Of a DNA stretch of 64,000 bases, positions 60,768 to 64,000 are shown one piece after another. The notes below the pieces were generated by a model. It was not told where the DNA came from and did no database searches. It saw nothing but the letters and a program-made list of their open reading frames with translations. This DNA comes from Cyanophyceae cyanobacterium (GTDB taxonomy: Bacteria; Cyanobacteriota; Cyanobacteriia; Cyanobacteriales; JBHJGN01), in the NCBI GenBank assembly GCA_050331735.1, contig JBHJGN010000008.1:25297-89296 (forward strand), in the 5' to 3' direction. Numbering within the stretch: position 1 is the first letter of the stretch; the number at the start of each line of letters is the position of its first letter. The position numbers and the translations under genes were made by a program.

Positions 60768-61313
60768 TTAACTGTGGGTAGTAACTTTAACTTCCATATC
60801 TTTATTCATTTCATAAATTTGTTTTTGTCGTCTCAAGGGACTCCATTGATACAGTAATAACTCAATCGGGTACCATAAGCTGACCCAACCAGCAATTAAA
60901 AAACCTTCGTTTAAAAACCTGTGTACTAATGTCGGTAAGTATTCTACCCTGTCGAAGAAGGTAGATATTATCAGACAGACTGCTAAAAAAAGTAGACCCC
61001 TTCGTAAAGCGCGAACTCCCTGTCCTCTTAGTGCGATTATATCGTTGGAAATCTTCTCAATCTTATGGTTACAGTAACGCTGCAAAGCATCGGCGATCGA
61101 GGTTTCGATATTTTCTGAAAGCTGATGGTCTGGAAGTAAGATTGTAGTTCGTACTTTGTCTGTTAGAGATGTGGGTTTGAGTTGATTGACAATACGCTCG
61201 ATCCCAGAACTAGAATCTGTCTGCGGGACAAAAAGATCGAATTCTGGTTCTTGGAATAAGTGTTTGATATTATCGAGCTTTAAATTGAAGTCATAGTAAC
61301 TATCGCTCATCAA
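60768..61313 (-). CDS. Hypothetical membrane protein
   Basis: Two TM helices; EGFLIAGWVSLWYP. Confidence 0.75.
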   Translation of the reverse strand: MMSDSYYDFNLKLDNIKHLFQEPEFDLFVPQTDSSSGIERIVNQLKPTSLTDKVRTTILLPDHQLSENIETSIADALQRYCNHKIEKISNDIIALRGQGVRALRRGLLFLAVCLIISTFFDRVEYLPTLVHRFLNEGFLIAGWVSLWYPIELLLYQWSPLRRQKQIYEMNKDMEVKVTTHS

Positions 61314-61461
61314 AGTAATTAAGAAAAATTAGACTTTGGACAGTAATAATATAGCCGTACAAAGTTAGATTACGACAATATCAGCGATAAGCAAGGGCGG
61401 CATAGTTTCGCTACGCTTTAAAAGCAGCATTTAATAAATAATGCCCTACTCAAGATTTTAT

Positions 61462-61706
61462 CTAAAAAAAAGAGGAAGGATTTGGTTCCTTCCTCATGTC
61501 GCAATTTTGTCGATTCGCTTGCGCTTCGTTGTTTTCTTTGAGTTTTTGCCGCAGTCGCTGCTGCTGTTTTTTAATTTGTCTGGCGCACGCTGGAGCGTGC
61601 CGCCTTTCCATAGGAAAGTCGAAGCTCGAAGCGAGCTTGCCGAACCGCCCTTTCCTTTGTCGTTGCGCCCTTGGCGACGGGGCGATTCCCAACTTTTTAA
61701 TCTCAT
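61462..61706 (-). pseudogene. Small basic protein gene frameshifted by a ~50-nt triple-hairpin insert
   Basis: MRLKSWESPRRQGRNDKGKGGS in one frame and ARQIKKQQQRLRQKLK in another, separated by hairpins at 61585-61638. Confidence 0.65.
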
Positions 61707-61708
61707 AT

Positions 61709-62542
61709 TTATCCCTCTTTGGTCGTGCGTGCGTGTTTTAACTGTAGTACGCGGTTCAATTTGCAGCTACGATAGCCTTCTAAATCTAAGGTGACGAACA
61801 TAAACCCTAAATTTTGAAACTTGGCAGTCAACTCCTCAAGGTCGATCGCGCTAACAAAAGCTTTAATTTGTTCTGGGGGTAGTTCGATCCTGGCGGTATC
61901 ACCCTGAGAACGCACCCGCAGATTTTTATAGCCCAGGTTACGCAGATAAATTTCGGCTCTACCTACCCTTTGTAGCTTTTCGACGGTAATTGCTTCGCCG
62001 TAGGGAAAACGGGAACTCAGACAGGGTTGAGCGGGTTTATCCCACCAAGAAAGCCCCAACAGCCGCGAAATCTCCCGCACTTCTAGTTTGCTTACACCCA
62101 CTTCAGCTAGAGGCGATCGCGCTCCTCGTTCTTTGGCTGCCTGAATACCTGGGCTATAGTCTTGAAAATCGTCGGAGTTAACTCCATCGATGACGTAGGG
62201 ATAACCCCGTTCTTTAGCTATGGGTTTGAGCGTGTCGTGGAGTTCGCTCTTGCAAAAATAACAGCGATTTACAGGGTTAGCAGTGTAGTTAGGGTTGTCC
62301 ATTTCACGAGTTTCTACCAGTTCGTGTTCGATCCCGATTTCTGCTGCCTGTAGCTGTGCCGCATCCAATTCTTCGGGCATCAAGGAAGGAGATACCGCAG
62401 TAATGGCAATGGCGCGATCGCCCAAAACCTCACAAGCAACTTTAGCAACCAAGGTACTATCAACTCCACCAGAGTAAGCAATTAAAGCTTGCTCCATCTC
62501 TTGAAATAAAGTTCTGAGTTGCTGTAATTTTGCTTCGCTCAT
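61709..62542 (-). CDS. larE: LarE-like PP-loop ATP-dependent sulfur transferase
   Basis: AYSGGVDS, RCYFCK, PCLSSR, LRVR. Confidence 0.9.
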   Translation of the reverse strand: MSEAKLQQLRTLFQEMEQALIAYSGGVDSTLVAKVACEVLGDRAIAITAVSPSLMPEELDAAQLQAAEIGIEHELVETREMDNPNYTANPVNRCYFCKSELHDTLKPIAKERGYPYVIDGVNSDDFQDYSPGIQAAKERGARSPLAEVGVSKLEVREISRLLGLSWWDKPAQPCLSSRFPYGEAITVEKLQRVGRAEIYLRNLGYKNLRVRSQGDTARIELPPEQIKAFVSAIDLEELTAKFQNLGFMFVTLDLEGYRSCKLNRVLQLKHARTTKEG

Positions 62543-62596
62543 CTAAAAACACGCGGGCAGCACGGAAACCCCTGTCTTTTGAGCAGGGGAGGAGTG

Positions 62597-63703
62597 CTAC
62601 GCGGGCAATTTATTGCCCGTCACCCATTGCGTCCTCCATGTGTTGTACGTTAAGAATTTAATGTCTTTGGGAATAGCTGATTGTGTTAATCTTTTCCCCG
62701 TGAAAATTGAGTGCAAGCTAATGACTTTGCGACTCGGCTCTTTCTTGGTAGGCTTCAGCATTTCACCTCCAACGTAAGTCAATCCCCATTTGGGATGCTG
62801 AACTCGCGAACCGCGTTTGAAACCAGCAGATATCGTACCCCCATAAGGAGAGCGAATCTGCCCTGGTGCGTGTTCGAGCCTGTGAAGCTGCCGTCGATGA
62901 AACCGTAGCGGCGTAACTACTAACAAGTCTTTGTTGCTAGGTTGAGATAACCCACCTACAGCAGAGTAAGCTAAAGCAAAACTATCAACGCAGTGAGCCG
63001 AAAAGACTGCTGCCATTTTATTTCTAGTTTTTTTTAGACTTAACTGTTCTCTAAGTTCGGCGCGGACTGGAGTCCGCCGACGCGCTCGAAGCGCGGCGAT
63101 TCGCTCCAGCGAATGATGACCTTGTAGTAACTCGACAGGGGCAAGTTTCTGTAATTGAGAGTAAAACCAGTCTTTTCCTACCTGAAGCGGTGAGAATGTA
63201 ATTCCCCATTTACCTCCGTAGGCTCTAGCTTTTACATCTTCAACTACAAAAACAGAAATTGGGTAGATCTTTGATAACCAATTGGCTATCCGTAACTTCC
63301 ATTGCCAACGGGCTTTGGTGCTAGGAGCGAGCGCTATTTTGTTTCTTAGCCTGTTCCATCTAGGCTGGCGACAAGGTGTTTTGCGGTAGCGTCTAGATCT
63401 ACGCATCTCGCGTCTAGTCTTGATGTGCTTTTTTACCCAATCAACTGTTACTGCCTGAATATTCAGATACTGGTGAAGGCTTGACTTAACTGTATAGCCT
63501 TCCATTCGGCTACCTGGGTCAATACCACAAGCTATAGGTTGATAATTTCTAGCTGACGGTTCTTGGTTCAGGCGAACACAAAATATGCCGCGCTTCCAGA
63601 ATGGGGTTGCTTTGCCAGACTTAATCCATCTCGCAGCACGGGCTGGAGTGGTGGGCATTAAAGGTCTTTGGTCGTAATCTACAACTGGCACTTTGCTTTG
63701 CAT
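62597..63703 (-). CDS. isrB: IsrB RNA-guided nickase (PLMP, RuvC, no HNH)
   Basis: PLMP, GIDPG RuvC-I, Arg-rich bridge helix, VEDV RuvC-II, HCVD RuvC-III, HRRQLH; 368 aa; no HNH or CxxC. Confidence 0.88.
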   Translation of the reverse strand: MQSKVPVVDYDQRPLMPTTPARAARWIKSGKATPFWKRGIFCVRLNQEPSARNYQPIACGIDPGSRMEGYTVKSSLHQYLNIQAVTVDWVKKHIKTRREMRRSRRYRKTPCRQPRWNRLRNKIALAPSTKARWQWKLRIANWLSKIYPISVFVVEDVKARAYGGKWGITFSPLQVGKDWFYSQLQKLAPVELLQGHHSLERIAALRARRRTPVRAELREQLSLKKTRNKMAAVFSAHCVDSFALAYSAVGGLSQPSNKDLLVVTPLRFHRRQLHRLEHAPGQIRSPYGGTISAGFKRGSRVQHPKWGLTYVGGEMLKPTKKEPSRKVISLHSIFTGKRLTQSAIPKDIKFLTYNTWRTQWVTGNKLPA

Positions 63704-64000
63704 GGCAGTAAGCCTGTATGTTTACTTCCCTTCGCTACTGACTAACACAGAGGAACAAAATTAGGGAGGCGTTCTGTTCGTGTTTCGGACTGCTACGTCC
63801 AGTTAGTTCAGTGTAAGTGCGGGCGGCATAAACATTCGAGGAAACAGGGCGTTCTCCCAACGCCGAGCCGTTAGCTAACGGCTCCGTCGTTTCCAACGAC
63901 GCTAATGACGCGCCCTTAGCTAGACACTGGTTTAACTTAGCCTTTACCGATTAGCTGTCGGCAGTGCCCAGCCCCCGAATAGAATTCGGGGGTTAGTGAC
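63704..64000 (-). ncRNA. omega-RNA scaffold of the IsrB element (guide would lie beyond the window)
   Basis: ~300-nt multi-hairpin non-coding leader between the element end and isrB; late CCTCCCTAAT...CCTCTGT and GCGAAGGGAA segments resemble omega-RNA 3' parts. Confidence 0.75.

Follow-up and report, generated by a model that had tools for sequence, protein, structure and literature searches.

The final 1,458 bases of the window form an insertion sequence that is non-autonomous, falls in the ISC1 group (IS200/IS605 superfamily) and carries IsrB and an omega RNA. The window is the whole 64,000-nt stretch that we analysed, positions 25,297-89,296 of contig JBHJGN010000008.1 from the Cyanophyceae cyanobacterium assembly GCA_050331735.1 (G000:C8:25297-89296 in our numbering, where G000 is the window's own 5.57-Mb genome). 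In kind this element is known, being a small cyanobacterial mobile gene with IsrB and its guide RNA, and the hairpin inserts within it are its sole unusual part. As a whole, the data are very likely best explained by an ISC1-group IsrB element that takes its guide from the host flank and carries passenger hairpin inserts, which it probably tolerates. The element and its surroundings comprise the following features, in window coordinates:

62543-64000, minus strand: the whole non-autonomous ISC1 / IS200-IS605-type element (omega RNA, isrB and 3' end), with a boundary common to 80/80 related loci and a 3' module running up to ATGA
62597-63703, minus strand: isrB, 368 aa, with a PLMP motif, an R-rich bridge helix, predicted RuvC residues D62/E155/H237/D240 and predicted TAM readers R338/Q341
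63704-64000, minus strand: omega-RNA scaffold, 297 nt (about 205 nt without its insert), matched by a covariance model
63972-63992, unstranded: terminal hairpin, at once SL1 of the omega RNA and transposon-end hairpin, with a perfect 9-bp stem 8 nt from the boundary
62569-62589, unstranded: subterminal hairpin of the 3' end, with a stem of 6 bp and a loop of 9 nt; a conserved TTTCC comes next on the isrB strand, and the module is also found in relatives
62599-62607, minus strand: copy 1 of the direct repeat TGCCCGCGT, overlapping the isrB stop codon and a hairpin at 62602-62619
62551-62559, minus strand: copy 2 of the direct repeat TGCCCGCGT
62539-62542, minus strand: ATGA target site and predicted TAM, the ATG of which is the larE start codon
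61709-62542, minus strand: larE, the host gene lying immediately downstream, which encodes an ATP-dependent sacrificial sulfur transferase (TIGR00268 at 319.5 bits, cut-off 150)
61472-61495, minus strand: strong terminator-like hairpin and T run, ending the predicted isrB-larE transcription unit

The IsrB protein and its omega RNA

The isrB frame contains no internal stops. Pfam recognised a single family in its product, RRXRR (PF14239, residues 5-158, E = 3e-35); HNH families gave no match at E ≤ 0.1. The NCBIfam IscB model matched with its N-terminal half alone (profile positions 3-157 of 314) and at 100 bits against a cut-off of 175; together with the absent HNH, this partial match below the cut-off ruled out an IscB identity. 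By sequence, the closest solved structure was DtIsrB (PDB 8DMB, entry 8dmb_P; E = 1e-40 over query residues 3-355, ~30% identity), with most IscB chains matching the N-terminal ~115-125 residues only and none reaching past residue 157. An AlphaFold2 model of moderate confidence, built from a 46-sequence alignment (mean pLDDT 64.7, pTM 0.62), also placed 8dmb_P at the top of a fold search (E = 1.7e-20, TM 0.72), with IscB structures and RuvC resolvases below it.

Residues D62, E155, H237, D240, R338 and Q341 were invariant in the 46-sequence alignment, and P14, L15, M16 and P17, which make up the PLMP motif, were conserved in homologues. Alignment and knowledge of the family predict that D62, E155, H237 and D240 are the catalytic RuvC residues. 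R338 and Q341 align with R323 and Q326 of DtIsrB, which are described as reading G3 and A4 of its NTGA TAM (PMC9581776). With PLMP/RRXRR, a split RuvC, no HNH and a C-terminal TAM-interacting domain bearing the Arg/Gln readers, the protein is IsrB. The initial annotation, made from the letters of this DNA, had described an intact 368-aa frame with RuvC residues and without HNH and had assigned it to IsrB; these points hold, and profile searches do not place the protein outside that family. Homologues are abundant (at least 3,161 proteins at E ≤ 0.001 among 8,000 candidates scored), the top ones coming from Pleurocapsa/Xenococcaceae-type cyanobacteria at 75-81% identity and being mostly 344-352 aa long. 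One cyanobacterial-type IsrB element (L043, 62% identity) sits on a contig of a MAG labelled Candidatus Gracilibacteria, maybe through a binning error.

For the RNA and the element ends, the comparison set consisted of 80 related loci taken from genome contigs (L002-L081), or 81 with the window. A covariance model, R1, was built from 50 of these relatives with the window left out and has 217 model positions. It gave one match in the window, running from 63700 to 64000 on the minus strand and covering model positions 1-217 of 217 (118.5 bits, E = 8.6e-26), and this locus was also its only match in the whole 5.57-Mb genome. A structured leader of ~300 nt had been proposed in the initial annotation along with a covariance search as a check, and that search supports it over the full length of the model. 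Rfam yielded 0 matches at E ≤ 1 in 61000-64000 from all 4227 families, searched with the window sequence and its inserts included, so the omega-RNA assignment rests on our own model. The HEARO RNA model likewise had no match there at E ≤ 1 (RF02033, the family number given in the Meers et al. preprint).

The structure is well supported by covariation. In the RNAalifold structure of the 50 relatives, compensatory changes were seen at 27 of 35 pairs, and once the two pseudoknots and the terminal hairpin were included, 32 of 48 pairs changed on both sides. Paired cells stood at 96.3%, compared with 33-45% when the partners were slid, and 0 of 500 shuffles matched any observed measure. A manual helix search on a MAFFT alignment also gave many short helices that were spurious, and only those passing the covariation recount were kept. 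SL1 (helix 1) shows compensatory changes at 5 of 7 pairs in relatives, and both the adaptor and the nexus pseudoknot are supported by covariation across the 50 relatives. One adaptor-pseudoknot pair is C:G in 48 of the 50; at this place 10 close relatives read GCCA/TGGC and the window reads GCTA/TAGC, a double change by which the pairing is kept. The helix order fits group B of Hirano et al. (SL1; SL2-SL5 loop pairing; SL4 loop-linker pairing before SL7; no fixed SL3), our SL names being mapped by topology onto the layout described there (PMC9581776).

Element ends, target site and host gene

Leader homology starts at one point in 80/80 loci, reading GTCAC (n = 77) or GTCAT (n = 3), and this point corresponds to window base 64000; the flanks upstream of it are unrelated among the 80 loci. 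At its other end the element stops at 62543, where ATGA (62542-62539) adjoins. As in IS200-IS605 elements, which lack terminal inverted repeats and do not duplicate their target, subterminal hairpins lie at both ends and the target is 4 nt long. The copies of TGCCCGCGT are 48 nt apart, on either side of the 3' hairpin, with no third occurrence in the window (0.47 matches expected by chance in the window; two or more in 5 of 100 shuffles). Relatives with the same 3' hairpin module have an equivalent imperfect direct repeat, and L009 and L010, which lack the module, have a single repeat copy each; the 3' module could therefore have been gained or lost via the repeat. In L024, L056, L078 and L080, the isrB stop codon is lost and the frame extends 29-38 aa into the 3' end of the element.

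The hairpins at both ends, the direct repeat around the 3' hairpin and the coincidence of the window end with the element boundary had been pointed out in the initial annotation, and all three were recovered here. Its description of the locus as complete stands for the element itself and fails for the guide, which lies beyond the end of contig C8: base 64000 is the final base of that 89,296-nt contig as well as the element boundary, and so the guide of this copy is out of view. Extension past 64000, which the annotation had also suggested, did not succeed, as no contig of the window's own genome continues the sequence (a search for contigs overlapping the leader gave nothing beyond 20-27-nt hairpin matches) and the contigs listed for the probable source sample also stop there.

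That sample is a stromatolite metagenome, the one sequencing run listed as containing this sequence; no RNA run was among the listed holders. In it, a unitig covering 62649-64000 with both inserts has a depth of 10.3, compared to 3.8-5.9 over larE and the last ~105 nt of the element, and breaks occur at 62648 and exactly at 64000; this depth evidence is not independent, since the contigs come from this one sample, which is probably the source. The genome assembly holds one copy of the element. On the simplest reading, the community contains the insert-bearing sequence in more than one context, so that the assembly broke off at the element boundary. No tnpA was found within or adjacent to the element, and there are eight Y1_Tnp matches elsewhere in the genome. 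Scanning 61300-64000 revealed no promoter-like site on the isrB strand. The missing inner promoter and the terminator past larE are compatible with transcription that enters from outside and reads through to larE.

The ATGA junction is a general property of these elements. ATGA follows the conserved 3' module within 48 nt in 70 of 79 assessable loci (2 of the 81 were too short to assess, and 3 of the 9 misses also show ATGA by eye). At 55 of these 70 loci, the junction ATG opens an ORF that is at least 60 aa long or runs off the locus, compared with 457 of 1,918 ATGA sites (24%) in a 5% sample of the window's own genome (binomial p = 7e-22, with loci that are not independent of one another). 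Many element 3' ends have a GGAG-like motif 5-8 nt before the junction ATG, as if the element supplied a ribosome-binding site for the downstream ORF. ATGA/GTGA sites were reportedly noted for HEARO by Weinberg and colleagues in 2009.

The GTCA(C/T) boundary and the ATGA junction agree with the published terminus and target of ISC1-1_MA, for which a 5'-GTCA terminus and an N|ATGA target verified with empty sites, without target duplication, are described (PMC4810608). The junction also fits the NTGA/NTG TAMs given for DtIsrB, CwIsrB and DsIsrB (PMC9581776). The Meers et al. preprint describes the omega RNA at the transposon's right end and IscB elements in the same orientation as the upstream gene.

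Through larE synteny in 20 same-order genomes, no empty site was found for the window copy; because the upstream neighbour of the relatives maps to the middle of contig C37, neither an empty site nor a guide can be derived in this way. A second larE (G000:C87:5092-5886, on a 9-kb contig) is 77% identical to the window larE, and both are 71-78% identical to the larE genes of relatives, about as close as they are to each other. Elements L014 and L016, which have different 3'-end subtypes and lie in different genomes, precede ORFs with nearly the same N-terminus (MSKQRVLSG and MSKKRVLSG); this could mean that the sites are orthologous or that one site was used repeatedly.

Hairpin insertions and arrays

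Two insertions distinguish the window copy from its relatives, and both contain tandem hairpins:

63062-63109, minus strand: in-frame 48-nt insertion in isrB (16 aa, L199-R214), absent from homologues
63062-63114: triple perfect-hairpin array in isrB (53 nt), spanning the insertion
63821-63912, minus strand: 92-nt insertion relative to model R1, at a variable site between helices S2 and S3 (the SL3 position)
63848-63901, unstranded: triple perfect-hairpin array 3 (54 nt), in the omega RNA
61585-61638, unstranded: triple perfect-hairpin array 1, 54 nt long, outside the element in the 3' UTR of larE
L013:~1440-1490, L015:~2590-2640, L016:~2575-2625 and window 63821-63912: instances of a hairpin mini-element

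In the protein, L199-R214 are missing from 11/11 aligned homologues, and among the 81 loci the window has the only insert at this site. The AlphaFold2 model gives residues 197-210 a pLDDT below 50 and draws them as coil between strand 190-194 and helix 214-220, which would put the insert in a low-confidence coil or surface loop inside the RuvC domain. A position in the HNH linker was considered and ruled out: DtIsrB linker residues 161-174 align with window residues 157-170 and not with 199-214, so the insert site lies ~30 residues past the linker. Other GC-rich, in-frame, hairpin-forming inserts occur in relatives L003/L006, L007 and L054.

The omega-RNA insert falls between helices 3 and 4 of the covariation count, where relatives have 0-30 variable nucleotides. 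The window leader is the longest of the 81 compared, with 297 nt from the boundary to the start codon, against 197-239 nt in 76 and 266-276 nt in 4 of the 80 other loci. The 92-nt insert is nested, consisting of an outer hairpin mini-element of ~46 nt that is split by the 54-nt array. This mini-element is intact in L013, at another omega-RNA site, and in L015 and L016, at the 3' end, and thus takes three different positions within IsrB elements of four genomes. Across the 4 instances its 5-bp outer and 9-bp inner stems covary, and its unpaired bases, with a TTT loop and a conserved TTTAT bulge, are conserved. A scan of the window's own genome detected no intact copies of the mini-element, and a search of 200 other same-order genomes gave no homologue of the 92-nt insert, the sole match being 22 nt inside a coding sequence. 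There is no near-identical insert-free copy among the relatives, the best of which are 79-81% identical, and the metagenome scan returned no near-identical copy with or without inserts (top match 79% identical). The insertions in protein and omega RNA reported in the initial annotation are real: the 16 residues and the 92 nt are extra relative to the 80 loci and to the model, respectively, and both element-borne arrays are present, with no differences, in the separate Logan assembly of the run that is probably the source.

We scanned the 5.57-Mb genome for arrays of at least 3 perfect hairpins with stems of at least 6 bp, loops of 3-6 nt and gaps of at most 4 nt. Three arrays were found in the whole genome, all of them at the end of the window and within 2.4 kb, compared to 0 in a 1-Mb Markov simulation. 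When stems of 5 bp were allowed, the number of triple arrays in the genome rose to 28; Markov-simulated sequence had ~6 per Mb, and these arrays were set aside as background. In the three strict arrays, the hairpins are GC-rich, stems are perfect in 9/9 of them and the layout is 3 × ~18 nt; array 1 lies 70-125 nt past the larE stop codon in a G-rich context, before the terminator. Each array is unique in sequence, and only 10-nt hairpin cores are common to them. The common 10-mers are over-represented in the genome (53 and 27 occurrences compared to about 11 expected); 44 of the 53 occurrences of the first are not extended hairpins, and therefore it does not define a repeat family.

Within 311 kb of related genome loci, a comparable array was present in L008 only, with 5 hairpins, in frame, at the IsrB N-terminus, and strict double hairpins were present in the leader of L003 and in the 5' flank of L012; metagenome loci totalling 161 kb contained one double hairpin. 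The inserts are most simply read as small, hairpin-built passenger insertions and not as adaptations. It is conceivable, though doubtful, that the arrays were left by a local process, as yet undescribed, by which tandem hairpins are written into DNA near an IS200/IS605-type element, unlike conventional repeats; such a process may involve fold-back or template-switch synthesis on single-stranded intermediates. Similar events in relatives would be the in-frame array of 5 hairpins in L008 and, in the leader of L003, a hairpin-forming insert. If they are a distinct kind of insertion, the arrays add to the poorly understood tiny, in-frame palindromic passengers of bacterial genes.

IsrB is among the smallest RNA-guided DNA-targeting enzymes, so natural insertions point, at little cost, to places where engineered payloads may be accepted. 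Two candidate tolerant sites emerge, the RNA site, which is already known, and, on the structural model, the loop after RuvC strand 190-194. The initial annotation had put forward both insert positions as tolerant sites for engineering. For the RNA site this is not new, because the SL3 position is already described as peripheral and variable, and as absent in a cyanobacterial subgroup (Hirano et al. 2022, PMC9581776); in the protein, the candidate site falls in a low-confidence coil.

Proposed mode of action and comparison with known systems

By analogy with the family, we propose that transcription enters from host DNA beyond 64000, and that the RNA would consequently begin with host flank: ~16-20 nt of it as guide, then the omega scaffold, isrB and probably larE. 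IsrB with this RNA would recognise the empty site, that is, the flank joined to ATGA, and would nick the non-target strand, which would favour re-copying of the element. A Y1 transposase acting in trans would move the element as single-stranded DNA via the two subterminal hairpins. The hairpin passenger inserts would have landed in a RuvC surface loop and, in the omega RNA, at the SL3 position on its periphery, and at such sites they probably do not abolish function; with the protein insert inside the RuvC domain, either insert could nevertheless impair it. The element illustrates the lifestyle of the family: its place is the leader of a host gene, exactly at a start codon within ATGA, and there the guide can come from host transcription. 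It appears well preserved and is predicted to be functional, probably as an active nickase like those that others have shown in the same clade.

The same inserts could mark a decaying copy, whose nickase or omega RNA has already been crippled by the two insertions and the nested third event while the frame still lacks stops. The leader is the longest of 81, one insertion lies within the RuvC domain, a GC-rich 48-nt insert is often open by chance, a single copy was assembled, and some relatives have lost their stop codons (L024, L056, L078 and L080). Yet every catalytic and TAM-reading residue is kept, the adaptor pseudoknot has been maintained through a two-sided change, the insert sites either vary in relatives or are modelled as coil, and the insert-bearing unitig is ~2× as deep as its flank, a hint that the same sequence has more than one context; we therefore consider decay unlikely. 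Very improbable, in our judgement, is a function for the inserts themselves, for example as additional stem-loops in the RNA, to which a host factor binds or by which the isrB-larE transcript is stabilised. Stabilising hairpins are plausible where array 1 lies, in the larE 3' UTR shortly past the stop codon and before the terminator, and the perfect stems of all nine hairpins and the covarying stems of the 46-nt mini-element over 4 instances would suit such a role. One array is, however, translated within the protein, which a role at the RNA level does not need; no relative has inserts at the same sites; and apart from the 22-nt coding-sequence match, the 200 other same-order genomes contain no homologue. 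An active IsrB element with tolerated passengers is the reading we prefer.

One of the closest characterised systems is DtIsrB from Desulfovirgula thermocuniculi (PDB 8DMB). As described (PMC9581776), it shares with the window protein PLMP, a bridge helix, a split RuvC that lacks HNH and, at the C-terminus, a TAM-interacting domain that has the same pair of Arg/Gln readers. Its omega RNA also lies 5' of the gene and forms adaptor and nexus pseudoknots, and its NTGA-type TAM fits the ATGA junction of the window (PMC9581776). The DtIsrB scaffold is 262 nt long (PMC9581776), compared to about 205 nt for the window without the insert. Relative to DtIsrB, the window has an additional 16 aa, placed past the strand that comes next to the HNH linker, as well as an additional 92 nt at the SL3 position.

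ISC1-1_MA from Microcystis aeruginosa is likewise non-autonomous and encodes an HNH-less IscB1, equivalent to IsrB (Kapitonov et al. 2016, PMC4810608); it differs from the window in species and sequence. The words 'start codon' do not occur in the main text of that paper (PMC4810608), whereas here 55 of 70 junction ATGs open a host ORF. CwIsrB (Crocosphaera watsonii) and DsIsrB (Dolichospermum sp.), compared here by description and not by sequence, share cyanobacterial hosts with the window element and are described as nicking DNA with an NTG TAM (PMC9581776). Their omega RNAs belong to subgroup B2, in which SL2-SL5 and SL4-linker pseudoknots and unpaired nucleotides in place of SL3 give the topology seen in the window (PMC9581776). 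Unlike CwIsrB and DsIsrB, the window element has two insertions.

Small hairpin-type passenger repeats include the palindromic elements of Rickettsia, and Elhai is said to have described small dispersed repeats of Nostoc in 2008. Within tnpA(REP) genes of cyanobacteria, REP insertions have been described (Quentin et al. 2018, PMC6006769). The window arrays resemble the REP, Nostoc and Rickettsia repeats in being short, GC-rich palindromes that lie in frame inside genes, those of mobile elements included. They differ in that the members of those families are repeated sequences, whereas the arrays are each unique and have a fixed layout of 3 × ~18 nt.
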